Below are positions 21,856 through 48,662 of a stretch of 64,000 nt of DNA, one piece after another. The DNA is taken from assembly GCA_017676145.1 (NCBI GenBank), contig GCA_017676145.1_3628.1. The stretch is one strand, 5' to 3'. Numbering within the stretch: the stretch's first letter is position 1; the number at the start of each line of letters is the position of its first letter. Below the pieces are notes generated by a model. It was not told the DNA's origin. It saw only the letters and a list, made by a program, of their open reading frames with translations, and searched no databases. The position numbers and the translations under genes were made by a program. This stretch comes from a phage.

Positions 21856-22470
21856 AGTTGCCTTATTGTTACAGGTAAAATAATTACATTGTTAACTATT
21901 TCTTATCTTTCTCTTAGTCATCTAATGATTCCAGTCAGTATAGTTATGTGCAGTAAACATTAGACGACTAAAGATTTCTCTGATTATAGTAACCTATCGT
22001 GACAATTTCGGACTGTTTACGAAAAATGTTGACACCTGGGCAGGTTTATGTTATGCAGTTTGTACGAATAATTATTTTGTACAGGTATTGACTATTCCGT
22101 TATTCTGTGGTTGGAATAAATACTTTGCAGGCTATAGAATGGTGATCGTACGTGGATTCTGAGATCTGTCGGCTATAGTTACACCCGATTTTTCACGTAG
22201 GACGCGCTTTTTGGTTTGTGTAAGTGTATGACTTATAAGGGTTTTTAATTGTTGACAGTATACTGAAAATGTGCATCAGGTTAAATTTTGCGCAATAGCT
22301 GCATTACGTGCAATTTTGGGAGAGAAAACAGGTAAAAATAGCACCGCTACCACACAATGAAAGGTTATGCAATAGTTATTTTACATGTATATTTGTACAG
22401 TGTGCTGGATTAATGGCTCGTCAATTATTCCACTTGTCAGGTAGGGCCGTTTATGGTAGGAAAAGAGCAG

Positions 22471-22497
22471 ACAAAAAAGAAAGGGGCCTAAGCCCCC
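22471..22497 (-). terminator. rho-independent terminator at the 3' end of the leftward block
   Basis: On - strand ggggc-ttag-gcccc hairpin followed by TTTCTTTTTT; 15 nt after stop of 22512..22775. Confidence 0.6.
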
Positions 22498-22511
22498 TTG
22501 ATAATGTTGTA

Positions 22512-22775
22512 TTATTTGTTGCTCATCCAGTTTTCCCAAGCTGCCTGATAATCTGCCTCACTGCGGCGGATCTCTTCTTGTTCTTCAAGCCGGATCTCTT
22601 CTTCCAGGTACCCAAGGATATCGGATTTTTTGGTCTGGCGTAACATCCAATCATCTTTTTTACGAGTAAAGATCTTGTACGCTTTCTCGCAAACCTCTTT
22701 TTTACTACCTTTTTGGACTTCAAGAACTTTGTAGGCCATGTACTGAACTAGTTTGAGCTGATCAAGACGTTTCAT
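22512..22775 (-). CDS. hypothetical charged protein (87 aa)
   Basis: Track ORF; aagaggta SD; last gene of leftward block. Confidence 0.5.
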   Translation of the reverse strand: MKRLDQLKLVQYMAYKVLEVQKGSKKEVCEKAYKIFTRKKDDWMLRQTKKSDILGYLEEEIRLEEQEEIRRSEADYQAAWENWMSNK

Positions 22776-22838
22776 GATGTTTACCTCTTTATGGGGTTCT
22801 GGTTTGGTGTGGGCCTTTTGGCCCGTGTCATTATCTTA

Positions 22839-23111
22839 TTACTTGCGGCGGCAAAATTCAAGCGTTTTTAATTGATAATCTTCCTCAGCCTGGAGTACAA
22901 CCGCCTCGATCATTTCGTTGGCATTGGTGAAGCCATACCCTTGAGCGAACTCATCCGCGCCACCTTCGTGATCATGTTCTGCGTTCATCGCTTCCACAAA
23001 ATGGAATTCAAGATTATTGAGGTAAGGGCTTGATGTTCCGTCCTCTTTTTCGATGAGATCCCAAATAGCGTTGAAACGTGATTCGACTTCTTGGTTAATC
23101 CAGCTTGACAC
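22839..23111 (-). CDS. hypothetical acidic protein (90 aa)
   Basis: Track ORF (GTG start) downstream of promoter 23166..23194 and 5' UTR hairpin. Confidence 0.45.
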   Translation of the reverse strand: MSSWINQEVESRFNAIWDLIEKEDGTSSPYLNNLEFHFVEAMNAEHDHEGGADEFAQGYGFTNANEMIEAVVLQAEEDYQLKTLEFCRRK

Positions 23112-23165
23112 GGCGTTTTCCTCTCTTCTGGTTGTTGTGTGGGCACTTTTGCCCCTTCAAGGTAA

Positions 23166-23194
23166 ATGCTACCCCACCACCTGGCAGATGTCAA
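23166..23194 (-). promoter_or_regulatory. sigma70-like promoter (TTGACA-17-TAGCAT) with CCAGGTGG spacer box
   Basis: - strand ttgacatctgccaggtggtggggtagcat; the spacer box gccaggtgg is shared with the + strand promoter at 31824. Confidence 0.4.
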
Positions 23195-23224
23195 CGGTTT
23201 TTATAGTTTTTTATATAACAGGCA

Positions 23225-23246
23225 CCCCCGGTGATTGTCTCCCCCC
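23225..23246 (-). promoter_or_regulatory. GC-rich conserved element GGGAGACAATCACCGGGGG (copy 1 of 3)
   Basis: - strand ggggggagacaatcaccggggg about 30 nt upstream of the -35; near-identical copies at 31886 and 32002 on + strand. Confidence 0.45.
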
Positions 23247-23280
23247 GTCGCCAGGTGCCGCCCGTAAAACAAGTATAACA

Positions 23281-23310
23281 AAAAACAGGACCATTGCAAG
23301 CCCTGTTTTA
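23281..23310 (-). terminator. putative intrinsic terminator (short stem)
   Basis: - strand acagg...cctgt stem followed by TTTTT, after stop of 23324..23515. Confidence 0.3.
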
Positions 23311-23323
23311 TAGTTTATAAAGA

Positions 23324-23515
23324 TTATATTTTTTCGCCTATGTAGTCCGGTCGGTTTTTCTCTGTCATGCGCTTGAGCAATTCTTGCATGTTGCTTATGG
23401 CTTGCAGTGTATCCCCTTCCAGACTTGAATCAACATAATCAGGATCGTCTATAACCTTTTTATGATTATGATAACGCAGTACCGCCAGTACTTTTTTAAC
23501 CTCTTCTGCTGTCAT
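23324..23515 (-). CDS. hypothetical protein (63 aa)
   Basis: Track ORF; taggtg SD. Confidence 0.45.
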   Translation of the reverse strand: MTAEEVKKVLAVLRYHNHKKVIDDPDYVDSSLEGDTLQAISNMQELLKRMTEKNRPDYIGEKI

Positions 23516-23523
23516 TATCGCAC

Positions 23524-23658
23524 CTAAAACAATGAGTTAATATATAACACCAGATCGCTGACTACCAGGACAACACCGATCAGCACATACCTAACCATAA
23601 AGGGAAAGATCGCCAATATTGCCGCCACGATCCCTATGGTAATAATTATCTTTCTCAT
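23524..23658 (-). CDS. micro-ORF encoding TM protein (44 aa)
   Basis: ATG 3 nt after stop of upstream gene; MRKIIITIGIVAAILAIFPFMVRYVLIGVVLVVSDLVLYINSLF. Not on track. Confidence 0.35.
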   Translation of the reverse strand: MRKIIITIGIVAAILAIFPFMVRYVLIGVVLVVSDLVLYINSLF

Positions 23659-23660
23659 GG

Positions 23661-23945
23661 TTAACGGTTCACGTAAGTTTTCCCGTTTACGGTTATCGGC
23701 AGATCCTCCAGGTCTGGATCTTCTTTAAGGTCGCGAGCAAGCTCACCGCACCGGATACCTTCGAATCCGTAGTACTCTGTTGTGCCGTCCTTAAAAGTTT
23801 TTGCGGCAAGGCATAACCGATAAGTAACACCGATTTGATTGACGGCATGGATATCAGTTAGATCTACCTCTTTTGCCAGCTCTTTAGCCATTACAGGCGC
23901 ATTAAGTCCAATAACCAGGGCAACTACTGCGATCATCTTTTTCAT
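23661..23945 (-). CDS. small secreted protein (94 aa) with N-terminal signal peptide
   Basis: MKKMIAVVALVIGLNAPVMA signal-like N-terminus followed by two Cys. Confidence 0.55.
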   Translation of the reverse strand: MKKMIAVVALVIGLNAPVMAKELAKEVDLTDIHAVNQIGVTYRLCLAAKTFKDGTTEYYGFEGIRCGELARDLKEDPDLEDLPITVNGKTYVNR

Positions 23946-24034
23946 GTTGTCTATTCTCTTTCTGCTGCGTTTAAGGCGGTCACCGCCGCCTGTTTATGCT
24001 TTGTTAGTTAATGGGGCGTACGGTATAGATTAAA

Positions 24035-24250
24035 CTATGCTGTACGCTCAACTATAACAACGGCTTGAGGGATCTCACCTTCCACCACTATCAAGGCTTT
24101 TTTCTGCGTGATAGATATCTTTACCCGCTTCAGCGTGGCGGTAAAATCTTTCATTTCGTCACGTGGTGTTTTAGTGCAATACCAGATCTCAGGCTTACCT
24201 ATTTGCAAGCCGCGTAAAAATTCCGTTTTGCCTGTTTTGTTCGTGATCAT
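24035..24250 (-). CDS. hypothetical protein (71 aa)
   Basis: ATG at M4 of track ORF 24035..24259; aaggtga SD. Confidence 0.45.
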   Translation of the reverse strand: MITNKTGKTEFLRGLQIGKPEIWYCTKTPRDEMKDFTATLKRVKISITQKKALIVVEGEIPQAVVIVERTA

Positions 24251-24260
24251 TTGTTTCACC

Positions 24261-24365
24261 TTACCCGATACCGTGGGAAGATAGGATCATGTTAGCCATA
24301 GTTGCAACCACTCCAACCGATAATGCCATGCCAACTACTACAACCGTGAAAATTTTTTCTAACAT
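24261..24365 (-). CDS. micro-ORF encoding TM peptide (34 aa)
   Basis: MLEKIFTVVVVGMALSVGVVATMANMILSSHGIG; not on track. Confidence 0.3.
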   Translation of the reverse strand: MLEKIFTVVVVGMALSVGVVATMANMILSSHGIG

Positions 24366-24437
24366 GATTCCACCATCATTAATGGGCGTTGCCTTATTGC
24401 CCCGCCCTATGTCGTACATTTTTCTTCTGATCCTCTG

Positions 24438-24701
24438 TTAGCATACGATAGCGATCACGCCGCCACAAATAAAAGGTAAATCAAAACGGTCTACCTTGCA
24501 AGCTATTTTTAAACGAAAGGCAACATAAAAGAAAAGTTGCAAACAATCGATCATTGTGTTAGCTGTTGAAACGCTGCCAGCATTAAACATCGCCCCGCCC
24601 ACGGCGTTAAACGTTGCGTTACTCACGAAAGCGAAAAGGCAAGCGATCACGGTGGCGATCATAATGTTGCGTTTTGTCAATCTGTAAATGATGTTTCTCA
24701 T
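24438..24701 (-). CDS. small membrane protein (87 aa)
   Basis: Track ORF with hydrophobic segments; start uncertain (alternative internal ATG at about 24662). Confidence 0.4.
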   Translation of the reverse strand: MRNIIYRLTKRNIMIATVIACLFAFVSNATFNAVGGAMFNAGSVSTANTMIDCLQLFFYVAFRLKIACKVDRFDLPFICGGVIAIVC

Positions 24702-24765
24702 TCTGTCATGTTGGCGGCATCGCTGCCGCCTTATGTATTATGCTTTGTTAGATTGTTGTTTGTTG

Positions 24766-24999
24766 TCAACTATTTTCAAAAAATTTTTCTGCTGTAATAT
24801 TTTTCCCGGTAGGGTTCGCTACTTTCAAAATTTTATCATGCACTGGACGCCCAAAAGAATAAGCGCCGTACACAGTACACCAATAATCGCCGTCAGGCTG
24901 TACTATTACCGCCGCATAGGGTACGCCTTTTTCGTTTTTGCTGACAAAATAGATCACATTGCCATTAATAGCCTCAGCGCGTTTAATTTGTTCCATCAT
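24766..24999 (-). CDS. hypothetical protein (77 aa)
   Basis: Track ORF; aggtga SD. Confidence 0.5.
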   Translation of the reverse strand: MMEQIKRAEAINGNVIYFVSKNEKGVPYAAVIVQPDGDYWCTVYGAYSFGRPVHDKILKVANPTGKNITAEKFFENS

Positions 25000-25062
25000 G
25001 ATGATTCACCTATCTTTATTTTTTCATAGTTTCAGGAGGGGCCTTTTTCGGCCCCGCCAGGC

Positions 25063-25347
25063 TTATTTATTGATGGCGTGCAGCGGGAAAGGTACGCCAG
25101 GTTGATAGATAACTTTTACAACCTCATCAGGGCAAAAGAAGTTACAAAATTCACCCTGATAAGCCTCATCCTCTTTTAATTCTTCACCAACATACTGGAA
25201 AAAGTAGTCAATGCTTGGATAATCCTGGCCGGGATTATAGTCGACCATTGTCAGGACTAACTCAAGATCGTTGCGTAGGATATGCATGCCCGCTTTTAAG
25301 TATTTTGCTTCCATTTCTACTACATCGCCAAAGGTAACAATAGCCAT
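25063..25347 (-). CDS. hypothetical acidic protein (94 aa)
   Basis: Track ORF; agaggag SD; downstream of promoter 25404..25432. Confidence 0.5.
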   Translation of the reverse strand: MAIVTFGDVVEMEAKYLKAGMHILRNDLELVLTMVDYNPGQDYPSIDYFFQYVGEELKEDEAYQGEFCNFFCPDEVVKVIYQPGVPFPLHAINK

Positions 25348-25403
25348 GATTTTAACTCCTCTCTATCCGGTTAATGATTGGGGGCCGCCCCCCTGATACG
25401 TCC

Positions 25404-25432
25404 TATTATCCATATTGTAGGGCTTGATGCAA
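25404..25432 (-). promoter_or_regulatory. sigma70-like promoter (TTGCAT-17-ATAATA)
   Basis: - strand ttgcatcaagccctacaatatggataata; shares AATATGGATAATA with promoter 26223..26251. Confidence 0.45.
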
Positions 25433-25571
25433 GTACTTTTTAAAAATTTTTTAAACGCCTTGGGGGCCGCTGTAGCGCTAAAATAAAAAAGGCCATGCAA
25501 CCGCATAGCCTTTGTGCGATTATATCGCTGCAGGCCCTGCCACGGGCCTTATTTTGCATCATTTGCCGGAA

Positions 25572-25877
25572 TTATCTGGAGAAAACATCGTTCACAATAG
25601 CGATCACAATGCCGCCCACCTTGTCACGGTCAACAATGCACAAATCACCATAGATCATGTGGTAGTCTGGATGATCTTTCACGGAATAGTCAATAAGTGT
25701 CTTCTTATCATCCAGCTTTTTAACTTCCACAGTCATTGTAATAAATTGATCGTTAAAGGCACTATTGCGGAAGATCATTACCTGGCCGCCTTGACATCCA
25801 GTGATCTCAACTTCCACGCCGTCTACGATCTGACCATCAAAGAAATAAAGATTATTGGCGGGTATGAACATGATCAT
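25572..25877 (-). CDS. hypothetical protein (101 aa)
   Basis: Track ORF; aaaaggag SD. Confidence 0.5.
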   Translation of the reverse strand: MIMFIPANNLYFFDGQIVDGVEVEITGCQGGQVMIFRNSAFNDQFITMTVEVKKLDDKKTLIDYSVKDHPDYHMIYGDLCIVDRDKVGGIVIAIVNDVFSR

Positions 25878-25915
25878 TGCTCCTTTTTGCGCTGATTATT
25901 TTAGCAGGGTTTAAA

Positions 25916-25961
25916 TTTACTTTATTTGATGGCCCTGGAGTCAAGGCCATCTAAAAATAAA
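25916..25961 (-). repeat. 46-bp conserved intergenic element, copy A
   Basis: tttactttatttgatggccctggagtcaaggccatctaaaaataaa immediately 3' of stop codon of 25964..26164; near-identical to copies at 29635 and 30257. Confidence 0.6.
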
Positions 25962-25963
25962 CT

Positions 25964-26164
25964 TTACAGGCCTACAATGTCTTTAATTCGTTTTACTGCT
26001 GCCTCAGCGCCTTGAGGGTAAAAATTATGGTAACCAATCACGCGGGTAATACTGATCGCCGCCTGATGATCTTCGTAATACCCCTTGAATATTTCTTGAC
26101 CATCAACCAGCACAGCAATTTTTTCTTCTTTTTTGAAGTTAATAACGCGGATATTGTTGCTCAT
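25964..26164 (-). CDS. hypothetical protein (66 aa)
   Basis: Track ORF; aaaaggag SD; own promoter and 5' UTR hairpin upstream. Confidence 0.5.
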   Translation of the reverse strand: MSNNIRVINFKKEEKIAVLVDGQEIFKGYYEDHQAAISITRVIGYHNFYPQGAEAAVKRIKDIVGL

Positions 26165-26207
26165 TTTGTTTCTCCTTTTGGAACTTTGTCTGTGTGGTGG
26201 GGAGTGT

Positions 26208-26222
26208 CTCCCCGTTGATTGT
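26208..26222 (-). promoter_or_regulatory. 5' UTR stem-loop GGGGAGACACTCCCC between promoter and SD
   Basis: Perfect palindrome located between -10 of promoter 26223..26251 and the RBS of 25964..26164. Confidence 0.45.
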
Positions 26223-26251
26223 TATTATCCATATTCAGGACCGGATTGCAA
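26223..26251 (-). promoter_or_regulatory. sigma70-like promoter (TTGCAA-17-ATAATA)
   Basis: - strand ttgcaatccggtcctgaatatggataata. Confidence 0.45.
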
Positions 26252-26261
26252 CACCCCGGAA

Positions 26262-26306
26262 GAAAAATTTTTTGAAAAAAGTTAGGCCCCCCAGGGATCG
26301 GGGGCC
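26262..26306 (-). terminator. rho-independent terminator
   Basis: - strand ggcccccgatccctggggggcc hairpin followed by long T-rich tract. Confidence 0.55.
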
Positions 26307-26310
26307 GTTA

Positions 26311-26430
26311 TCAGGTACGTACAGCGATAAAATACATCCCTACGCCTAACAATATTTCAAGGGCGAGGATCTCCAGCCATACCATAACACGGCGCGCCTT
26401 ATCGGTGCGGAGCTTATCCTTGGGTGTCAT
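26311..26430 (-). CDS. micro-ORF encoding TM protein (39 aa)
   Basis: ATG after strong SD (aggaggaaaggggga); MTPKDKLRTDKARRVMVWLEILALEILLGVGMYFIAVRT. Not on track. Confidence 0.4.
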   Translation of the reverse strand: MTPKDKLRTDKARRVMVWLEILALEILLGVGMYFIAVRT

Positions 26431-26450
26431 CGTCTCCCCCTTTCCTCCTG

Positions 26451-26672
26451 TTAGCGGTTACGTGGTTTGCAATGGCCCCCAGTAGTCCGATCACGACACA
26501 CACCGCAAGAAAAATTATCTCTGTCGTTGTTCGATCCATTGTTATAAAATTCCTCAAGATCAGGCCTAAAAGTAAATCCTTCGTTATTGAATCCATCCCG
26601 CCAGGCGGCTGGCTTCAAATCTTCACTAAATGGATTAATTAACGTGGTATTATTTAAACGGCTGGCCCACAT
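26451..26672 (-). CDS. hypothetical Asn-rich protein (73 aa), uncertain
   Basis: ATG at M7 of track ORF 26451..26690 with gaggag SD; competes with alternative frame 26414..26596. Confidence 0.3.
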   Translation of the reverse strand: MWASRLNNTTLINPFSEDLKPAAWRDGFNNEGFTFRPDLEEFYNNGSNNDRDNFSCGVCRDRTTGGHCKPRNR

Positions 26673-27021
26673 ATTTTCTACTCCTCTCAAATAAGCGATC
26701 CGCCTCAGTTAAACAAATCTCATGGGCGTGATCTCTGGTTTTAGCCTCATCGAAAACCTGTTGCGCAAGGCTGCAACGTAGGGAGATCGGGAGATCACTA
26801 TAATAGGCGTTGACAAACGTTTGAGCGTCGTACAGGTCTGAAAATACTTTACCCTTTCTATTATTCCCCTTGTCAACAATTGCAAGGATAATTAATACAA
26901 TAGTTGCAACCACCCCCAGGAAAATAGATATAATAAACCATAAAAAGGCGGATCTTCCCATCTTGCCAGCGATCCAGGCGTTAAATAAGGCGACCAACAC
27001 AGTCAAAATAATAAATTCCAT
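26650..27021 (-). CDS. membrane protein (123 aa, two N-terminal TM helices)
   Basis: ATG at M12 of track ORF; aagaggta SD; MEFIILTVLVALFNAWIAG...FLWFIISIFLGVVATIVLIILAIV. Confidence 0.5.
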   Translation of the reverse strand: MEFIILTVLVALFNAWIAGKMGRSAFLWFIISIFLGVVATIVLIILAIVDKGNNRKGKVFSDLYDAQTFVNAYYSDLPISLRCSLAQQVFDEAKTRDHAHEICLTEADRLFERSRKYVGQPFK

Positions 27022-27085
27022 TCTATGTACCTCTTTTGCAGTTCTTATCAACAATAAGGCGGCAAATATGCCGCCTGCTACCTGA

Positions 27086-27466
27086 TTAAAAATTATCGCC
27101 GTAAATCTTTCCGCTTTCTACCCATACCACCACGCGAGGCATACTATCCCACACGTCTTGTTTTAGATTGAGCGCGTGCAATTCTTCGGTGGTGCTCATA
27201 CCAGGCACGGGCTGATTGTATACTGCAAAACGACCGCCTGCATAATCATAGGCCAGGGTTAAATCACACTGGATCATCTTTTTGATCATGGCATTAAGCA
27301 TGGCGTTAGCCGCATATTGATCACGTTTTAAAGGCAACTCTTTGATTAGTTTGCGATAGTTTTCGATATGGTCGCACACTGTTTCACGCGGAAGATCTTT
27401 CATATCTTCACGGAATGTGACCAGGTTAAACATAACGGTGTCAATAGCCTTGGTGGTGTTTTTCAT
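27086..27466 (-). CDS. hypothetical protein (126 aa)
   Basis: Track ORF; agagga SD; promoter and 5' UTR hairpin (ggggcaagacgtttgcccc) upstream. Confidence 0.5.
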   Translation of the reverse strand: MKNTTKAIDTVMFNLVTFREDMKDLPRETVCDHIENYRKLIKELPLKRDQYAANAMLNAMIKKMIQCDLTLAYDYAGGRFAVYNQPVPGMSTTEELHALNLKQDVWDSMPRVVVWVESGKIYGDNF

Positions 27467-27519
27467 GATGTTATCCTCTATGTTTTGTGTTGGGGCAAAC
27501 GTCTTGCCCCTTGAGTTTT

Positions 27520-27547
27520 AATATAGCAGGTTTTTAGGTTATTGCAA
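27520..27547 (-). promoter_or_regulatory. sigma70-like promoter (TTGCAA-16-TATATT)
   Basis: - strand ttgcaataacctaaaaacctgctatatt upstream of 27086..27466. Confidence 0.45.
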
Positions 27548-27551
27548 CACT

Positions 27552-28178
27552 TTATTTATGAAAACTCATTTCCCCATATTCATCCACATCAAACCTCCAA
27601 TCATTGGCCGCGATAAGGCCGATCAGGTTTTCTGCGGTGAACTGCTCTAGATAGGCCTCCTCTAGGTCTACGTAAACCTTGCGGGATAGCTCCCGTACCG
27701 TCTCGGTGATCAGCTCCTCCAGGTCTTCCACTTTGTTTTCTTGTTTAGCGGTCAGATCTAGCCATGTGGTATCAATGTACCCGCTTACAGTGTTTTCATG
27801 GCTGTAACGGCTGTACTTGTCGCGTTCAATACTGGCGGATAGTTCGCCATCGTGCATTGTGCCGAACAAGTGACGAATTGATCGGAACTTGGTCAGGGCC
27901 TTGACTTTACGCAAGAATTTTTCTAAGTCTACATTTTCAGCACTGATCGATGCGCCATCGCCTTGACACCAAAAGCCGGACCAATGTACTTCAGTATCTT
28001 CAAGGCCGTACTCTGGAAAAACTTGTTCTTTATAGTATTCAATTACATTTTCTGAGAAAAAATCATCCTCGCTGCGTTCTTCTCTTTCGCGGACCATTTC
28101 AATGGCTTTTTCTTTTTGTTCGTCGGTCAGCACGTCGAAAGATAAATTGTAACCTGTGGTAATGTTAACGGTGGTCAT
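27552..28178 (-). CDS. hypothetical acidic protein (208 aa)
   Basis: Track ORF; acaggagaaaa SD; no domain recognised by eye (HWSGFWCQGDGAS segment noted). Confidence 0.55.
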   Translation of the reverse strand: MTTVNITTGYNLSFDVLTDEQKEKAIEMVREREERSEDDFFSENVIEYYKEQVFPEYGLEDTEVHWSGFWCQGDGASISAENVDLEKFLRKVKALTKFRSIRHLFGTMHDGELSASIERDKYSRYSHENTVSGYIDTTWLDLTAKQENKVEDLEELITETVRELSRKVYVDLEEAYLEQFTAENLIGLIAANDWRFDVDEYGEMSFHK

Positions 28179-28206
28179 GATATTTTCTCCTGTTTTCTTT
28201 GTTAAT

Positions 28207-28225
28207 GGCGGGAAGTTTTCCCGCC
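28207..28225 (-). promoter_or_regulatory. 5' UTR stem-loop GGCGGGAAAACTTCCCGCC between promoter and SD
   Basis: 8-bp perfect stem; sits between -10 of promoter 28236..28263 and RBS of 27552..28178; related hairpins at about 30728, 24713, 23972. Confidence 0.5.
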
Positions 28226-28235
28226 TATGTTTTTA

Positions 28236-28263
28236 ATTATACTTATTGAGATTTACTTGTCAA
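28236..28263 (-). promoter_or_regulatory. sigma70-like promoter (TTGACA-16-TATAAT)
   Basis: - strand ttgacaagtaaatctcaataagtataat. Confidence 0.5.
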
Positions 28264-28513
28264 CACTATTTTTTAAATTATTGTGGCGCAAAATGTTTAA
28301 AATCTCCTCAACGTCATCAACACGGCGGCAATTTTTAAACGCTACCAATTGCCCCATGATTTTAATCACTGGGCGGCCTTGCCAGTGCCCTTGAAGAAAG
28401 CGCGCTTTGACTTTATCGGTGGAACTATCCCGCCACCAGATAGCTTTATTGTTGCAGTAGTAAAAATTATTCAGGATAACATCAACTTTATCAAAATTTT
28501 TTAATTTACGCAT
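28253..28513 (-). CDS. hypothetical protein (86 aa)
   Basis: Track ORF; aaaggag SD. Confidence 0.5.
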   Translation of the reverse strand: MRKLKNFDKVDVILNNFYYCNNKAIWWRDSSTDKVKARFLQGHWQGRPVIKIMGQLVAFKNCRRVDDVEEILNILRHNNLKNSVDK

Positions 28514-28544
28514 GGCGTTTACTCCTTTCTCTCTTTGATGTGGT

Positions 28545-28572
28545 TATTATAGCTAACCTGTTGACGATGTCA
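28545..28572 (-). promoter_or_regulatory. sigma70-like promoter (TTGACA-16-TATAAT)
   Basis: - strand ttgacatcgtcaacaggttagctataat upstream of 28253..28513. Confidence 0.5.
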
Positions 28573-28694
28573 ATGATATTTTTAACGCTATAAAACGGCC
28601 CTAGGCGATGCTTTCAGGTTAAAGGGGGGCGATTGCATAGGTGGGGGCCTTTTTGGCGCTTACAGGGCCAACCAGGGGCGCTATTCGTAGGATA

Positions 28695-28724
28695 GAAATA
28701 AAAAGCCCCGCACAATGGCGGGGC
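28695..28724 (-). terminator. rho-independent terminator
   Basis: - strand gccccgc-cattgt-gcggggc followed by TTTTTATTTC. Confidence 0.6.
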
Positions 28725-28732
28725 GTTGGTTG

Positions 28733-28930
28733 TTATTTGTCTTTATGGCGGTATCGTTCTGCCTGTCGTTCACGTTCCAAAAGTAGGCCGGGCAATTTAC
28801 GATCATAATGATTCCGCCAGATCTTCCCAAACCTTTTTGGCTTATTCAGTTTATTGTTGCGCTGTCGGCGTTCTGGCAGATCTTCGGAATCATGAGGGCG
28901 CTTTATAATTTTCTCGAAATTAATTTTCAT
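28733..28930 (-). CDS. small basic protein (65 aa)
   Basis: ATG at M9 of track ORF 28733..28954; aagggggg SD. Confidence 0.45.
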   Translation of the reverse strand: MKINFEKIIKRPHDSEDLPERRQRNNKLNKPKRFGKIWRNHYDRKLPGLLLERERQAERYRHKDK

Positions 28931-29273
28931 ATATTCCCCCCTTGCTAACTTCAATATTGGCCTGAATAGCCCGGATACGGCGCTTTATACCTTCCCGATC
29001 TGTGTGATCGTATCCCCAAAAGTCAACAATTTTTGCGCCGCCCGCCTCCAAGCGGTATAGTGTTTCCTGCATTTTGTAAGCCGGGATCGGTCGCGGTGTT
29101 ACTTGGTCACCTTCTTTATTTTTATACTTTATAATATAATCTTCGTTATCGTTGAATGTCCAAAATGGATATTCTGCAAGGGCGGTACTTCCTCTTTCCT
29201 TTTTATCCTGGATCTTGTTTACAATTAAAGCCGTAGCAATAGCGCCAATAATAAAACTAGTCCCGCTAATCAT
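28920..29273 (-). CDS. membrane-anchored protein (117 aa, N-terminal TM helix)
   Basis: ATG at M3 of track ORF; aaaggagaaa SD; MISGTSFIIGAIATALIV. Confidence 0.5.
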   Translation of the reverse strand: MISGTSFIIGAIATALIVNKIQDKKERGSTALAEYPFWTFNDNEDYIIKYKNKEGDQVTPRPIPAYKMQETLYRLEAGGAKIVDFWGYDHTDREGIKRRIRAIQANIEVSKGGIYEN

Positions 29274-29349
29274 GTGCACTTTCTCCTTTCATGGTGTTAA
29301 TAAATTATCTTTATAGATGGCCCTGCAACCAGGACCACCGAAAAAATAA

Positions 29350-29595
29350 CTATTTCACAATACCTACAAAACAGATCCCGCCTTCACCTATGTAAGCAAT
29401 ATCGGTTACTTTGTAGTCGGTTAAGATCTGTTTATTCAGATCATTAATAAAATCAGTCATTACGTTGGTATAATTGTCTTCCATATCTAGGGAATAGTCC
29501 CAGGTGTAGACCTTTTTACGTCCGAAGCCTTTTACCATGATACGGGCGCTTTTGGTGTTGGTGGGCGCATAATATTTTGTGATTAGTGCTGCCAT
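29350..29595 (-). CDS. hypothetical protein (81 aa)
   Basis: Track ORF; gaggag SD. Confidence 0.5.
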   Translation of the reverse strand: MAALITKYYAPTNTKSARIMVKGFGRKKVYTWDYSLDMEDNYTNVMTDFINDLNKQILTDYKVTDIAYIGEGGICFVGIVK

Positions 29596-29634
29596 GGTTT
29601 TAACTCCTCATTAGTTCAGTGTTAACAGTGTAAA

Positions 29635-29680
29635 GTTTACTTTATTGATGGCCCTGGAGTCAAGGCCATCTAAAAATAAA
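29635..29680 (-). repeat. 46-bp conserved intergenic element, copy B
   Basis: gtttactttattgatggccctggagtcaaggccatctaaaaataaa directly after stop of 29683..30024; identical to copy C. Confidence 0.6.
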
Positions 29681-29682
29681 TT

Positions 29683-30024
29683 TTACTCGTTTTCTTCCAG
29701 CTCTGAAAGCTCCTCTTTCACTTCTTCCAGCTCTGTCTGCAATTCCTGGTATTCCTCATCGTCCTCAATATCCAGGCTGTCGATGTAGTCGCTAAATCCG
29801 CAGCGGTAAGCGATAGGATCTAACTCCTTGAGGATACGCGACGGAAGAAAAGAAATGTTACCGATCATAATTTCGCCGTGGATCTCGTCTAACCATTCAT
29901 CATAGTTTTCGTCGTACTTGTCCTCGTCGATTTCAAAGTTATCGATCTTGTTCTCAAGATCTGCGATCTGTTTTTTCAGCGCGGCGATCTGCATAGCTTT
30001 TTCTGCGGCGGTCATAGTAGTCAT
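29683..30024 (-). CDS. hypothetical acidic coiled-coil protein (113 aa)
   Basis: Track ORF; aaaaggagaaaa SD. Confidence 0.5.
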   Translation of the reverse strand: MTTMTAAEKAMQIAALKKQIADLENKIDNFEIDEDKYDENYDEWLDEIHGEIMIGNISFLPSRILKELDPIAYRCGFSDYIDSLDIEDDEEYQELQTELEEVKEELSELEENE

Positions 30025-30074
30025 GGTGTTTTCTCCTTTTTTGTGTTTTGGGAAGTTTTCCCGTTTACGTGTTT

Positions 30075-30103
30075 AAGTATACTGATTTGGGTTAGCTTGT
30101 CAA
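30075..30103 (-). promoter_or_regulatory. sigma70-like promoter (TTGACA-17-ATACTT)
   Basis: - strand ttgacaagctaacccaaatcagtatactt upstream of 29683..30024. Confidence 0.4.
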
Positions 30104-30256
30104 TTAAAAATTTAAGAAAAATTTTGCAAAACTGTTGGCGCTACTCATTAACATTTGCGCCAGGATGTAACCGACAACGCAAACGATAATAGTTACCTTT
30201 GTGTATTGGCGTGTAGTGCTCATCTTAAAGCCCCCTTTTTCGCTTAGTTGAGACTA

Positions 30257-30302
30257 GTTTACTTTATTGATGGCCCTGGAGTCAAGGCCATCTAAAAATA
30301 AA
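30257..30302 (-). repeat. 46-bp conserved intergenic element, copy C
   Basis: Identical to copy B; directly after stop of 30304..30708. Confidence 0.6.
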
Positions 30303-30303
30303 C

Positions 30304-30708
30304 TTAATAAGTTTTCAGTACTTTCCCGTCCAACCTGTCAAGCTGGATCTCAATAGCTGCAGAAAACCTATTGTACACCACGTCGCCCATAGAATCCAAC
30401 CAATCTATGACGTTATATACCTGCTCTTTATTCTTACAGGTCCGGATCCGTTTCATGATGTAAGCCGGATCAATATTGGTACTCTCGTTGGTGTTCTCCT
30501 GTGCCTGGTTTGCCGTATTAGTTACATCTTTAATGGCCTTTACCACCACCTGGAACGGCTTTAAGGTGCCTTTTGCGTTCATCTCACGCGCTTTTGCGGC
30601 GCGGTTGTTATATGTTACACAACGGCGGCAAATGTTGATCAAATGCATGTCAATAATTTTTTCATCGTTTGCCAGCTCGTTCATGATGCGGCGTACGTTC
30701 TTATTCAT
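30304..30708 (-). CDS. hypothetical protein (134 aa)
   Basis: Track ORF; 5' UTR hairpin ggcgggaatgtctcccgcc upstream. Confidence 0.5.
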   Translation of the reverse strand: MNKNVRRIMNELANDEKIIDMHLINICRRCVTYNNRAAKAREMNAKGTLKPFQVVVKAIKDVTNTANQAQENTNESTNIDPAYIMKRIRTCKNKEQVYNVIDWLDSMGDVVYNRFSAAIEIQLDRLDGKVLKTY

Positions 30709-30727
30709 GATCTTTTTCCTTTGTTCT

Positions 30728-30746
30728 GGCGGGAGACATTCCCGCC
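30728..30746 (-). promoter_or_regulatory. 5' UTR stem-loop GGCGGGAATGTCTCCCGCC
   Basis: Perfect 8-bp stem between putative promoter and RBS of 30304..30708. Confidence 0.45.
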
Positions 30747-30790
30747 TTTTGTGCCTAGTTTACTTGAATTTTGCAGCGTGTCAATGATTT

Positions 30791-31189
30791 TTATTCGTGG
30801 GCACATGTCACAATGTGCTTTTTATAGCCCAGGCGGTCAGCAAGTGCCGCCAAAAACTCTTCTTCGTAGATCCAGCCGTCGGCAGTGATCCCCATAGCAT
30901 TTAATGCGCTCTCAAGTGCTGCGTTGGCTTTATCATAACCGTGACCGCTCGCCTTGCCGCCAGTATAGCCGTACTTATTGTTCTTGTTGTCGTGTATCCA
31001 AAAAACGCAGTAGTAAGTGTTCCCGCTGGCGGCGGCATAATACCGGATCTCAGCTACTTCGTGCAAATTATTGTCATCGTCCAGGCCCACCAGATTATAG
31101 GCCTTGTAAAATCCACGATCACGGCGGCAGTTCTTGACATCAGAAAAAGAAAAGTCCGCATTATCAAAATTAAAGGTGGTGGTTTTCAT
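30791..31189 (-). CDS. hypothetical protein (132 aa)
   Basis: Track ORF; gagagga SD. Confidence 0.5.
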   Translation of the reverse strand: MKTTTFNFDNADFSFSDVKNCRRDRGFYKAYNLVGLDDDNNLHEVAEIRYYAAASGNTYYCVFWIHDNKNNKYGYTGGKASGHGYDKANAALESALNAMGITADGWIYEEEFLAALADRLGYKKHIVTCAHE

Positions 31190-31253
31190 GATTTTATCCT
31201 CTCAGTGTCTTTTGTGCTTTTAGTGTATTTGGTGTCGGCCTATATGTCAATAC

Positions 31254-31451
31254 TTATTTTTTATTAAACCAGTGGTTGATCTGGCCTTTTGTCAGGGCGC
31301 AACGATTAAGCTGTTGCCGGGTATAGCTCTGACCGCGACGGAATTTATAAAGGCCTTGCCCGTTGTTGATGGTCACATCCACCTGGCAAATCATTTGATC
31401 GGTGACCACCTGGCGAGTGCTGCGACGTACTTTAATTCCGTAGGCGTTCAT
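31254..31451 (-). CDS. hypothetical basic protein (65 aa)
   Basis: Track ORF; gagagga SD. Confidence 0.45.
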   Translation of the reverse strand: MNAYGIKVRRSTRQVVTDQMICQVDVTINNGQGLYKFRRGQSYTRQQLNRCALTKGQINHWFNKK

Positions 31452-31487
31452 GATTTTTATCCTCTCTGTTAATTAGTGTGGTGTTGT

Positions 31488-31712
31488 TCACCTTGCGAGG
31501 ATAAGAATAACAAAAACTGTCCTAGCTGTCAACCACCAGTTAAAATTATTTTTTGGGTAGAATTCTCCAGCCGCCGCCCCTGCCAGGTTGACCATCATTT
31601 TTTCGTACTCTTCTTTATGTTCCAACGCTCCCGCCATAGCCTTTTCAACCAGGGCGATGGCCTCCGCGTTATTAATAGCTACATTTTCCAGGAGGATCCT
31701 ATTACCTTTCAT
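31488..31712 (-). CDS. hypothetical protein (74 aa) with C-terminal hydrophobic segment
   Basis: Track ORF; gaggagg SD. Confidence 0.5.
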   Translation of the reverse strand: MKGNRILLENVAINNAEAIALVEKAMAGALEHKEEYEKMMVNLAGAAAGEFYPKNNFNWWLTARTVFVILILAR

Positions 31713-31823
31713 TTTTGTACCTCCTCTTCAATTGTTACCTATCCTATAGCATAGGCCCACCAGGCTGGCCCCGCCAGGTTGCAGCGGTCAGCGCATCAGG
31801 TTAGAAAAATTTTTTGAAAAGTG

Positions 31824-31852
31824 TTGACAGCGGCCCCGCCAGGTGGCATAAT
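31824..31852 (+). promoter_or_regulatory. strong sigma70-like promoter on + strand inside the leftward block (TTGACA-17-CATAAT)
   Basis: ttgacagcggccccgccaggtggcataat; no ORF of 60 aa or more downstream on + strand; transcribes conserved GGGAGACAA / GAGAA-TATCATT elements. Confidence 0.5.
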
Positions 31853-31885
31853 ATACATATCGAAAGGACGGCAGGCACCGGTGAC

Positions 31886-31906
31886 GGGGGAGACAACCAC
31901 CGGGGA
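31886..31906 (+). promoter_or_regulatory. GC-rich conserved element GGGGGAGACAACCACCGGGG (copy 2 of 3)
   Basis: About 35 nt downstream of -10 of promoter 31824; followed by GAGAACGATTATCATT at about 31924. Confidence 0.45.
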
Positions 31907-31923
31907 TGGGCGCTGCATGAAAT

Positions 31924-31939
31924 GAGAACGATTATCATT
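31924..31939 (+). repeat. 16-bp motif GAGAACGATTATCATT
   Basis: Third of four copies of GAGAAYRNYTATCATT. Confidence 0.5.
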
Positions 31940-32001
31940 ATCGTCTAAAAATTTATGCAAAAACTTCTTGCTTTCTTTGTCCTGTGTGGTACTATAATAA
32001 C

Positions 32002-32020
32002 AAGCCGGGGCAGTAGGGGC
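32002..32020 (+). promoter_or_regulatory. GC-rich conserved element GGGAGACAATCACCGGGGG (copy 3 of 3)
   Basis: Preceded by TACTATAAT -10-like element; followed by GAGAATGATTATCATT at about 32050. Confidence 0.45.
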
Positions 32021-32049
32021 CGGGAGACAATCACCGGGGGTGCCCGTTA

Positions 32050-32065
32050 TTCTGCAAACGAGAAT
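32050..32065 (+). repeat. 16-bp motif GAGAATGATTATCATT
   Basis: Fourth copy of GAGAAYRNYTATCATT. Confidence 0.5.
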
Positions 32066-32696
32066 GATTATCATTCAAAATTCTAAATGAGAACTTTTCG
32101 CATTTCATAAATTTAGTTAGCATGCTAATTACCTACCGTGACAATTCTATATAAAATAATAACTCCTAAAATATTCCCATATAGAAATTTTAAAAATCCA
32201 TTTCTGAAAACGAAAAATCGATTTAGTCCCCAAAAATTTCAGGTCGAGCGCCGGAACGATTTCCAGAAAATCTGATTCAGAAAACGAAAAACAGATCGAG
32301 TACTGAGAGATTTATCGAGAAAAATTTTCAGAAAATCCAATCTTTGAAACGAAAAACAGATCGAGTACTGGGAAAGATGTATCAAAACCTATTGATAATA
32401 ATTAACTTATTGTTATAAAAGGTCAGAAGTAAGTTGGGAAAGTTCTGGTAGAAGGGTGAGAGTGTGTGCGGAAAATCTGGAACGGTGATTTGAAGTACGG
32501 TGCGAACGATAGGATGATCAGCACAGCTTATCGTGCCTGTCTTGAAAAATCCATTTTAGTTTTCGATCCATTTTCTGATTTTCTAAGGATTTCCAAATAT
32601 CTGCAAATATCTGATAAATAAGGGAAAATCCATTACATATTTTCCCTCATCGCCTAAAATTTTTATAATTTTAAAATAAATACTACCATAAATATC

Positions 32697-33341
32697 TTAA
32701 ATAAATTTCACCAATGTTATAGTCTCCTTATTATTTTTCAAATCATTCTCAAGGATAGTTATTGCACGTTTAATGGCGAACAGCCAAATCTCATCTTTGT
32801 TTTTAATAGCCTGAAGTTTCATCTCCTCAAGTTTCATTTCTTGCCACACCTTGTGTGCTGTCTGTGGATCATCGAAATGACCGCCATGAACAATTTTTCC
32901 ATCTCGATGACAATGCACGAGATACTTGTTTACATCTTTTCTAAGTGTCACACCCAAAGGTAAATCCCCTCGTGCTGCCTGTCTTATGCCAAATAGGGTG
33001 TTTATTTGTGGTGGAACAAACATGCATGTTTCTGGGGAGTATATTCTGTTTCCAGGGATTTTCAGATCTTTGTCAAGAGTGAACTTCTTAGCGTCTCTTT
33101 TCCACTCTTGTGTATCCATCCATTTCCAGAATTCTGAGAACAACCACCAATCTTCTACAACTTCACAACCTGTATGGTACTTTGAGTTATCGCCGTAGCA
33201 CCTCTGGAATAATGCTTTCCATGTAGCATAGTGGGGTTCTGGTACTCTCTTACCATTAACAGATTGGTACATTGGGACTTTGTCTTTTAAATCGTTTACT
33301 CCACGACCACATACTTTTCTGTCTTTAACAGGTATTCCCAT
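32697..33341 (-). CDS. putative homing endonuclease-like protein (degenerate HNH-like segment plus AP2-like DNA-binding segment)
   Basis: ATG at M18 of track ORF; LDKDLKIPGNRIYSPETC (HNH-like) and KYLVHCHRDGKIVHGGHFDDPQTAHKVWQE (AP2-like pattern); flanked by AT-rich repeat region. Confidence 0.35.
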   Translation of the reverse strand: MGIPVKDRKVCGRGVNDLKDKVPMYQSVNGKRVPEPHYATWKALFQRCYGDNSKYHTGCEVVEDWWLFSEFWKWMDTQEWKRDAKKFTLDKDLKIPGNRIYSPETCMFVPPQINTLFGIRQAARGDLPLGVTLRKDVNKYLVHCHRDGKIVHGGHFDDPQTAHKVWQEMKLEEMKLQAIKNKDEIWLFAIKRAITILENDLKNNKETITLVKFI

Positions 33342-33666
33342 CAATCCCACCTTTTCCTTTGTACATGCGTAGAGGTATAGTCTTTGTAACATTCCATCTC
33401 CCCAACCCTTCCCAGTTCCAATTGTGGGCGTGGTACCCAGTTATGCATGCACTGCTGGAGTGATCATAGGCATAGGAGAACGCTATGCGTAACAGATGAG
33501 GCCAGTCTTTCCACGGCTGTGGTCCGTAAGCCTTTCTCCAACACCGACACAAACTAAATGTCTCAAGAATAGGCAGGATAACAAATCCATACACCACCAC
33601 CAAGATGATCAGCGCAATGATTGTCAGGAATACATACCCTGCAGTTGAAATGATGATCTCTGTCAT
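33325..33666 (-). CDS. membrane protein (113 aa, N-terminal TM helix)
   Basis: Track ORF; ISTAGYVFLTIIALIILVVVYGFVILPI. Confidence 0.4.
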   Translation of the reverse strand: MTEIIISTAGYVFLTIIALIILVVVYGFVILPILETFSLCRCWRKAYGPQPWKDWPHLLRIAFSYAYDHSSSACITGYHAHNWNWEGLGRWNVTKTIPLRMYKGKGGIDGNTC

Positions 33667-33857
33667 TTGTCATCCCCTTTACGAATATAGATGTGTGAGC
33701 CTGCCTGTATATAAATTTCTCGACCATCTTCTGCAAAAATATGGAATACACGGTCACCTTCGTATTCAATACGGGATATCTTCATAACGGTCTTCCCACC
33801 CGGAATGCGGATCTCATCGCCTACAGCAATGTTCCATGCAGATTTAAGCTTAAACAT
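33663..33857 (-). CDS. hypothetical protein (64 aa)
   Basis: ATG at M3 of track ORF; aaaggaggg SD. Confidence 0.45.
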   Translation of the reverse strand: MFKLKSAWNIAVGDEIRIPGGKTVMKISRIEYEGDRVFHIFAEDGREIYIQAGSHIYIRKGDDK

Positions 33858-34095
33858 CAGCACCCTCCTTTGGTAGCTTGAACTCTGGCATAGCCATATA
33901 CGCTACAACAGGGTTGTGATCAAAGTAGAACTGACCGTTAATTATCCCGGTTTTACTCACATAGTTACCAGATCCTGCAAGAACAACCTCGCAAGCTCCG
34001 AAATCTACATTGCCATCCTCATCAGTCATGGCTACGATATACTTTCCTAGAGGCATGTTTTTAACTCCGTCTACAAATGTCCACCCTTTGTTCAT
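33850..34095 (-). CDS. hypothetical protein (81 aa)
   Basis: Track ORF; caggagat SD. Confidence 0.5.
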   Translation of the reverse strand: MNKGWTFVDGVKNMPLGKYIVAMTDEDGNVDFGACEVVLAGSGNYVSKTGIINGQFYFDHNPVVAYMAMPEFKLPKEGADV

Positions 34096-36828: not shown

Positions 36829-36859
36829 TACAAAAATGCCCCACCCTTTCGGGCAGGGC
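36829..36859 (-). terminator. rho-independent terminator with GAAA tetraloop (copy 1 of identical pair)
   Basis: - strand GCCCTGCCC-GAAA-GGGTGGGGC followed by ATTTTTG; identical 22-nt hairpin at 48641..48662. Confidence 0.65.
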
Positions 36860-42974: not shown

Positions 42975-43302
42975 CAATAGTTCAGGTAGGTCGTTAAGCT
43001 ACCCCGCACCATTACGTGCATAGCCATACAGTTTCCCGTATGGATCGGACTATCTCACTGCCTTGTCACCAAGGCACCTCTCATTTCGACCGCACTTGCT
43101 GGCCTACTCTACTCGCTTCTTCACCCCAAACTGTGTTGGAGCTATGCTTTCGATAGTCTCTGAACGTTCATCCTCTCGGATGCTTCGCTGCGGATTAGCA
43201 TATTGAGCTTTTACCATGGTTAGGTGTAAAAGTCAACTTAGCCTTCCCGTCAATTAAAGAGGTTTTCGACGTGCATCACTGCACGAAGCCACAATGTTAT
43301 TT
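42975..43302 (-). mobile_element. ORF-less group I intron interrupting DNA polymerase motif C
   Basis: 328 nt between H and DE codons of motif C; exon 1 ends in U, intron ends in G; P7-like pairing AGACUAU / AUAGUC present; in-frame stop 1 codon into intron. Confidence 0.55.
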
Positions 43303-48632: not shown

Positions 48633-48662
48633 TGCAAAAAGCCCCACCCTTTCGGGCAGGGC
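48633..48662 (-). terminator. rho-independent terminator with GAAA tetraloop (copy 2 of identical pair)
   Basis: - strand GCCCTGCCC-GAAA-GGGTGGGGC followed by TTTTTG; identical to hairpin at 36838..36859. Confidence 0.65.

Follow-up and report, generated by a model that had tools for sequence, protein, structure and literature searches.

A conserved mRNA-sense hairpin behind stop codons in the early region of rV5-like phages: a candidate processing element that also marks sites of gene-cassette recombination

Introduction

Why should one short sequence recur, almost letter for letter, directly behind the stop codons of otherwise unrelated phage genes? The question is raised by a stretch of phage DNA 64,000 nucleotides (nt) long (NCBI GenBank assembly GCA_017676145.1, contig GCA_017676145.1_3628.1; referred to below in its entirety as the window), in which a preliminary description based on the letters alone had pointed to three copies of an intergenic element. 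The part of the window that carries them (25000-31500) shows 97% identity to Escherichia phage FV3 and 90-95% identity to about 110 other rV5-like myoviruses (Vequintavirus). The copies are placed in the leftward early region, a run of small open reading frames (ORFs) on the - strand, and the rV5 genome paper assigns this region to one long transcription unit comprising genes 10-1-238-164 (PMC3606486). Little can be read from the neighboring gene products: a Pfam search with eight flanking proteins returned zero matches, and in PHROGs all of them fall into families of unknown function. Phages of the rV5/FV3 type are widely used as therapeutic or biocontrol candidates against pathogenic Escherichia coli. 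In this work we analyzed the fold, the conservation, the distribution and the rearrangements of the element, and weighed what it may do at the RNA and at the DNA level.

Results

The element is anchored by a 24-nt core, GATGGCCCTGGAGTCAAGGCCATC, which is found exactly at 25928-25951, 29647-29670, and 30269-30292 on the + strand and which gave 0 matches in 100 shuffled sequences. These are the places named in the preliminary description, and its statement that each copy directly follows the stop codon of a - strand gene is borne out by the low ends of the three ORFs (25964, 29683, and 30304). Copy A (25914-25963, - strand, 76 bits with a covariance model built from the copies) forms a full hairpin with its upper stem at 25928-25951; it lies after the stop codon 25964-25966 of a 66-aa ORF and upstream of a 101-aa ORF (25572-25877). 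Copy B (29634-29682, - strand, 79 bits) is again a full hairpin, with its upper stem at 29647-29670, after the stop codon 29683-29685 of a 113-aa ORF. In copy C (30256-30304, - strand, 81 bits; full hairpin, upper stem 30269-30292) the first base is at the same time the last base of the stop codon 30304-30306 of a 134-aa ORF. Copies B and C had been called completely identical, and they are so across 47 nt (29634-29680 and 30256-30302), while copy A carries one additional base. The count of three was correct as far as it went but missed a fourth, diverged paralog, copy D, at 29303-29351 (- strand, 71 bits; upper stem 29316-29339), which has four G·U pairs, a compensated lower stem and no -35-like hexamer, overlaps the TAG stop codon 29350-29352 of an 81-aa ORF and lies upstream of a 119-aa ORF. 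The hairpin keeps a fixed distance from the gene before it: at four unrelated genes the stem either begins right next to the stop codon or has its first 1-2 nt in common with it. No such constancy is seen on the other side, where a few tens of nt to about 50 separate the hairpin from the following start codon, depending on the site. A function in closing all three reading frames was dropped after inspection by eye, as one frame stays open.

The family is small and narrowly distributed. The covariance model gave exactly four hits in the 64-kb window and no further copy over the remaining 90 kb of FV3, so that a genome holds four copies within a span of 4.4 kb, all in a single orientation; no other long hairpin of the same style was found in 22000-33900. 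The three main copies occupy the same sites in about 120 phage records. In a metagenome scan with a specific pattern only Vequintavirus-type contigs of about 137 kb matched, and a covariance-model search of the syntenic early regions of distant relatives (Citrobacter Tr1, Klebsiella phi1_175008, and other loci) revealed no diverged members. The element family is thus confined to Vequintavirus, one transferred cassette (described below) excepted. A looser scan of viral contigs for the palindrome GATGGCC-N10-GGCCATC, together with a 15-base scan, was discarded since nearly all of its matches were due to chance; only those in contigs L168 and L123 were real. The same elements are also borne by 17 GenBank records (MG0656xx) named 'Campylobacter phage' (host C. 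jejuni), which show 93-94% identity to this E. coli Vequintavirus region and whose host label looks doubtful. The independent phage records and the metagenome contigs, which agree on the sites, show that the element is no assembly artefact, and the sites are non-coding according to the annotations of FV3, rV5, and EdH4. No feature is annotated at the element positions in the rV5 RefSeq, FV3, and EdH4 records, and the repeat goes unmentioned in the rV5 genome paper, which lists 33 promoters and 20 terminators (PMC3606486). Rfam scans gave no relevant family in 25000-31500 at E <= 10 and no family for the element in the whole window at gathering thresholds. Neither Rfam, nor these three annotations, nor the rV5 genome paper describes the element, which we class as a structured RNA of a familiar kind that is restricted to one genus.

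The fold of the - strand RNA is larger than the 7-bp stem with a 10-nt loop that had first been noticed. It consists of an AU-rich lower stem of 10 bp (AGUUUAUUUU/AAAGUAAACU) with one U·G pair, an asymmetric 2x3 internal loop (UA/AAU), and a GC-rich upper stem of 10 bp (GAUGGCCUUG/CAGGGCCAUC), again with one U·G pair, which is closed by the terminal tetraloop ACUC. The energy of the fold is -22 to -25 kcal/mol on the - strand (z = -4 to -6.8). The + strand folds more weakly, copy D folds on the - strand only (-24.6 kcal/mol vs -10.4 on the +), and the covariance-model scores are 71-81 bits in the sense and 33-42 bits in the antisense direction. Over 24 distinct copies 99.0% of the cells in paired columns are paired, and sliding the partner column by 1-3 positions reduces this to 35-58%; changes on both sides occur at four lower-stem pairs and in none of the slid registers, and the covariation score observed was reached by 0 of 500 shuffles. 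In a larger set of 38 distinct copies from 16 sources 98.7% of the cells are paired (100% in the upper stem), in an alignment that was fitted to the model and leans towards structure. The element is also the least variable segment at each site, with 0.10-0.16 variable columns per column, compared with 0.23-0.25 in the adjacent preceding coding sequence and 0.30-0.74 in the downstream spacer.

The pattern of change tells on which strand, and at which level, the pairing is kept. G·U cells that pair in the sense RNA only, and are A·C mismatches on the other strand, number 64, and antisense-only cells number five. All three differences between copy D and the main type in the upper stem are wobble changes (A-U to G·U, C-G to U·G, and U·G to C-G), and in the lower stem full swaps have taken place at two adjacent pairs (U-A/A-U to A-U/U-A). 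The lower stems of D orthologs read GUUAU..AUAAU, ACUGU..AUAGU, GCUGU..ACAGU, and AUUGU..AUAAU; in a metagenomic copy A a U-A pair became U·G; the loop sequences vary while the stems are kept. The sense-strand G·U pairs and the compensatory changes argue for a transcribed and selected RNA structure and not for a DNA palindrome. The comparisons thus establish the fold of the element together with its strand specificity, its conservation and its position. A DNA-level element would also account for an inverted repeat in multiple near-identical copies associated with rearrangements; it could be a palindromic operator to which a dimeric protein binds, or else a miniature mobile element or a homing target. 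A protein-binding site and the footprint of a small mobile element or homing target stood among the roles suggested at the outset. A DNA palindrome is contradicted by the asymmetry of the wobble cells (64 vs 5); copy D is no palindrome as DNA, and the half-site centers are 17 bp apart. A mobile element or homing footprint is not supported: the four copies share one orientation and a span of 4.4 kb, the rest of the genome has none, the only occurrence beyond the genus is the transferred cassette, the flanks carry no target-site duplications, no transposase or endonuclease genes are associated with the copies, and the rearrangements described below are ordinary homologous crossovers within the repeat. 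We regard a DNA-level function as having a next to negligible probability. A resemblance to binding sites of IHF (ATCAA....TTR) was set aside as a partial match that is absent in copy D.

The two arms of the stem do not drift alike. The 3' arm and the adjoining AGGGCCAUC-N-AUAAAG are invariant in both paralog types, and the 5' arm drifts via wobble pairs; this suggests sequence-specific recognition beyond pairing, as would be expected if the hairpin were bound by a phage or host RNA-binding protein (a regulator of translation or stability, or an antitermination factor) instead of being cut by a nuclease. The restriction of the copies to one early region would suit such a protein as well. On the other hand, the asymmetry between the arms amounts to 3 changes against 0 (p about 0.125), the loop, where proteins usually make contact, is free to vary, none of the flanking genes is recognizable as coding for an RNA-binding protein in the Pfam and PHROGs searches mentioned above, and the element shows no likeness to nut or put elements or to any Rfam family. 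We consider a protein-binding hairpin of this kind unlikely.

A GC-rich stem of 10 bp directly after a stop codon calls to mind an intrinsic (Rho-independent) terminator or attenuator that would close each small cassette, all the more so as the element does close a promoter-ORF unit and as the stem-loops of the PeSLs (promoter-early stem-loops), elements of T4-like phages that combine a stem-loop with an early promoter, have been shown to terminate (PMC2839356, PMC4122927). Yet a U-run follows neither the upper stem nor the full hairpin, as the preliminary description had recognized in refusing to call it a canonical terminator, and the polarity on both strands (U-rich 5' and A-rich 3') is the reverse of that of a terminator. 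Our terminator scan called canonical terminators nearby (for example 28724-28705 and 25513-25488) and left the element copies uncalled, and the copies are not annotated as terminators in the EdH4 and rV5 records. Termination is accordingly a highly improbable function of the hairpin.

Which cistron the hairpin serves can be judged from its position and from one natural transfer. All four copies stand between ORFs of the same orientation, on their coding strand and downstream of promoters, and transcription through them is expected. Phage KKE7M (Justusliebigvirus, subfamily Stephanstirmvirinae) shares 95.7% identity with the window over 29636-30104 and has unrelated flanks on both sides. The cassette bounded by copy B (29636-30104, - strand) consists of a sigma-70 promoter (TTGACA at 30103-30098, a 16-nt spacer, and TATACT ending at 30076), a hairpin GGGAAAACTTCCC in the 5' untranslated region (5'-UTR), the 113-aa ORF (29683-30024), and element B; the block found in KKE7M starts at the -35 of this promoter, takes in the 5'-UTR hairpin and the 113-aa ORF, and stops at the last bases of the element. 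In this transfer the element travelled with its upstream gene, which together with the fixed distance to the upstream stop codon indicates that it acts as the 3'-terminal part of the cistron before it.

The function that we favor, and to which we give an even chance, is that of an intercistronic processing and 3'-stabilizing hairpin in the polycistronic early mRNA. Transcribed on the - strand, the element would form the 3' end of the message upstream, and host RNase III (most likely, on the 3' side of the internal loop), or another endonuclease acting on the A-rich 3' side, would cut at or near the internal loop; cuts are predicted at about 29646-29643 in copy B, 30268-30265 in copy C, 25927-25924 in copy A, and 29315-29312 in copy D. 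After such a cut the upstream message would end in a stable 10-bp hairpin and be shielded from 3' exonucleases, and its fate would be uncoupled from that of the downstream cistron, as at the early R sites of phage T7. While the fold and the selection on it can be read directly from the alignments, the cleavage, the enzyme and the effect on stability are what we infer. The duplex of 10 + 10 bp around a 2x3 internal loop fits the size requirement of RNase III of about 20-22 bp, or two helical turns, in which interruptions are allowed. The E. coli enzyme accommodates a duplex of about 22 bp, prefers sites that are intergenic within a transcript, and strongly prefers A-U/U-A at positions D/D' (PMC6212723); with the enzyme centered on the internal loop, a register that we assumed, D/D' would be the invariant U-A pairs at columns 19-39 and 12-48.

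The copies also leave traces at the DNA level. In phiWec189, ECP32, and contig L168 the C-to-B interval (29684-30255, - strand), which holds a 39-aa ORF, a promoter and the 113-aa ORF, is absent, and a single C/B hybrid element stands at the junction with the upstream flank of C and the downstream flank of B; the homology blocks on the two sides of this junction overlap by one element length. Phage 241Ecol014PP lacks the 81-aa gene and carries a B/D chimera in which the crossover lies in the shared CAGGGCCAUC-N-AUAAAG block, and this leaves the chimera with mismatches (U·U and A·A) at precisely the two lower-stem pairs that covary. Within a genome, paralogous copies have derived loop states in common, ACAC being found at A, B, and C and ACUU at A and B; copy B equals copy C in 8 of 11 genomes, and orthologous sites differ between genomes. 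The sharing within and the differences between genomes point to gene conversion. These comparisons of sequence show that the copies, being near-identical direct repeats, undergo gene conversion and serve as crossover points at which small early-gene cassettes are deleted, inserted and exchanged. This gives a concrete route by which small early ORFs are gained and lost in mosaic fashion in this group of phages, and by which a cassette is transferred to phi92-like phages.

Phage rV5_ev146 (L137) is without the early genes of window positions 23237-28784 (5.5 kb) and 30212-30721 (0.5 kb), with junction overlaps of about 10 nt, and copies A and C were lost from it via these deletions, which do not end at elements; the two block losses indicate that much of this early region is dispensable in culture. 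An extra gene of about 345 bp is inserted at 25558/25559, just downstream of the 101-aa ORF, in EdH4, slur12, phiWec189, and contig L123, and this insertion is not bounded by the hairpin element. A second block shared with KKE7M (L136 653-1038), which is otherwise unrelated, covers 24037-24422 with its 74-aa and 52-aa ORFs at 92% identity and points to repeated cassette exchange between the two subfamilies. The promoter and leader at the head of the cassette described above belong to a repeated module (23675-23694, 28210-28263, and 30050-30103, - strand) made up of a strong sigma-70 promoter (TTGACA, 16 nt, TATAAT/TATACT), the conserved hairpin GGGAAAACTTCCC about 10 nt further downstream in the 5'-UTR, and a Shine-Dalgarno sequence (SD) with ATG; this module may be a 5' mRNA stabilizer. 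KKE7M itself has two intergenic GC-rich hairpins (L136 1800-1812 and 4696-4708), GGCGGGGA...TCCCCGCC and GGCGGGAAA...TTTCCCGCC, each followed by the 13-mer GCCATCAATAAAG, which also ends the upper stem of the element; in KKE7M its AAAGAG is the SD for the gene that follows. The motif may be shared, or the match may be due to chance.

The element contains hexamers that resemble a sigma-70 promoter, and these raise the question of whether it works for the downstream gene as well. In a composite of the PeSL type the three main copies would also, or mainly, be promoters for the gene that follows, with a -35 of TTGAC(N) spread over the loop and the top of the upper stem, and a -10 of TAAA(C/T)T in the 3' arm of the lower stem, while the hairpin would insulate the unit from upstream transcription and the whole would be a portable linker for ORF shuffling; such a function would be compatible with a role in the RNA. 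A promoter scan of the - strand called the pair in copy B (TTGACT 29663-29658, an 18-nt spacer, TAAACT 29639-29634) and in copy C (TTGACT 30285-30280, an 18-nt spacer, TAAACT 30261-30256), with 9 of 12 matches each. The consensus TTGACA is present in many relatives, and the B/D chimera yields TTGACA/17 nt/GATAAT. The loops of the main copies examined are all of the form AC-N-N (ACUC, ACAC, ACUU, ACGC, ACAU, and ACCC), the AC that completes TTGAC being fixed and the next two positions free. Upstream there is an AT-rich tract, the next SD/ATG follows in the right orientation and at a suitable distance, TAAACT is also the -10 of a strong-looking promoter at 30784-30757, and in T4-like phages the PeSLs, which pair a stem-loop with an early promoter, mediate ORF insertions and deletions of the same kind (PMC2839356, PMC4122927).

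Several observations weaken this case. A 9/12 match is common by chance (43 found vs 26 expected in 12 kb), and the spacer is 18-19 nt, compared with 16-17 nt together with TTGACA in the clear early promoters of this phage. Copy D has kept the fold and has no -35, and copy C of contig L123 has kept the hairpin while the spacing of its hexamers has grown to 20 nt. The fold already accounts for the conservation of the -10 and of most of the -35, as these positions belong to paired columns. The pair is omitted from the promoter list of the rV5 authors and from the RefSeq record, and in KKE7M the element moved with the upstream gene and not with the downstream one. When the element was examined for a separate strong promoter of the PeSL type, only the 9-10/12 hexamer pair with its 18-nt spacer, embedded in the hairpin, was found. 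We hold a promoter function of the main copies to be possible, in a tentative sense. It is rather doubtful that a single sequence of 49 nt does three jobs at once, namely those of a processing and 3'-stabilizing RNA hairpin for the upstream cistron, a sigma-70 promoter (loop and 3' arm) for the downstream cistron, and a repeated linker that would be the preferred crossover point for excising and inserting promoter-ORF-hairpin cassettes and for passing them between subfamilies (Vequintavirinae to Stephanstirmvirinae). If so, the element would be an overlapped, minimal counterpart of the T4-type PeSLs in which an RNase III site replaces the terminator.

Three further features of the window lie outside the region of the element. 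A Group I catalytic intron (Rfam RF00028) was found at 43025-43312 on the - strand as a full-length match with 75 bits, the gathering score being 50. Three direct repeats of about 55 nt, 62-80% identical and spaced by 74 and 65 nt, occupy an ORF-poor stretch at 32180-32373 and may equal the 'non-coding' box on the rV5 map. A pair of GC-rich hairpins, AAAAAGCCCCACCCTTTCGGGCAGGGC, at 36833-36859 and 48636-48662 (96% identical, 11.8 kb apart) are probably terminators.

Discussion

The role of an RNA processing or stability element had been the first of those proposed in the preliminary description, and we favor it on the strength of a structure that is conserved in the sense RNA only, as seen in its G·U pairs and compensatory changes, and of an architecture like that of the RNase III sites of T7. 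In this respect the early interpretation holds; it had mistaken the size of the stem and passed over the fourth copy, the promoter-like hexamers and the recombination. A number of points weigh against processing. The compatibility with RNase III was judged by architecture alone and under an assumed register, and the similarity of the arm sequences to T7 sites is not above chance. There are only four copies, and the phage rV5_ev146 is without A and C, which indicates that these two are dispensable in laboratory culture. Part of the identity between copies reflects gene conversion and not selection. Finally, the main type never varies at loop positions 1-2 (AC), a constancy that a -35 hexamer predicts and a model considering only the RNA does not. 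If the hairpin is a processing site, phages of the rV5/FV3 type, like T7, would shape the expression of their early genes post-transcriptionally, and a defined element would be at hand for the engineering of cassettes.

Among known systems, a first comparison is with host elements. Repetitive extragenic palindromic sequences (REPs) and other intercistronic stabilizer hairpins are imperfect palindromes located after stop codons in operons; they do not terminate transcription and can protect the upstream mRNA from 3' exonucleases. The element shares with the REPs the imperfect palindrome just after a stop codon. The REPs differ in belonging to the host, in being dispersed in hundreds of copies, and in having a GTAG/CTAC signature and an associated RAYT transposase, none of which applies to the element.

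The closest likeness in the RNA is to the early R sites of T7. As in the present phage, R0.3, R0.5, R1, R1.1, and R1.3 are several similar copies between the cistrons of an early mRNA transcribed by the host polymerase. The two kinds of hairpin are built alike, with some 18-20 bp in total: below a small loop comes a GC-rich upper stem of about 10 bp that includes G·U pairs, then an internal loop with one extra nt on the 3' side, then an AU-rich lower stem, and a terminator U-run is missing from both. The stop placement here has a parallel at R0.5, whose lower stem includes the stop codon of gene 0.4. When folded from the T7 record, R0.3-R1.3 show 9-13 bp in the upper stem, G·U pairs included, and 5-8 bp in the AU-rich lower stem, on the two sides of a 4x5 internal loop; the present internal loop is 2x3 and the lower stem 10 bp. 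For T7 cleavage we used coordinates that we take to be those of Dunn and Studier (1983), the only check being that R0.5 and R1.1 land on the same UAU|GA motif. A likeness of the arms to T7 R sites (CAAGGUCAU / GUGGCCUU) was rejected as chance after a scan of the whole T7 genome, in which the best matches lay away from RNase III sites. The present copies resemble one another far more closely than the T7 sites do and take part in recombination, and cleavage is a prediction for them.

In genome organization the element comes closest to the PeSLs (Arbiol et al. 2010, PMC2839356; Comeau et al. 2014, PMC4122927). Both are conserved composite motifs that extend from a stop codon to the next gene in a plastic early region of small ORFans, and both combine a stem-loop, a sigma-70-like hexamer pair and an AT-rich tract. 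'Half' versions that consist of the stem-loop only are known for the PeSLs and are represented here by copy D. The parts are arranged differently: the stem-loop of a PeSL is a terminator that lies upstream of, and separate from, a near-consensus promoter, whereas here the hexamers are embedded in the hairpin with an 18-nt spacer and a U-run is missing. The PeSLs are also far more numerous, with dozens per genome spread through hyperplastic regions, compared with four copies of the element within 4.4 kb. The two are also alike in being sites where single ORFs are deleted, inserted and exchanged between close relatives, and the evidence for recombination between the copies carries the PeSL idea beyond the T4-like phages.

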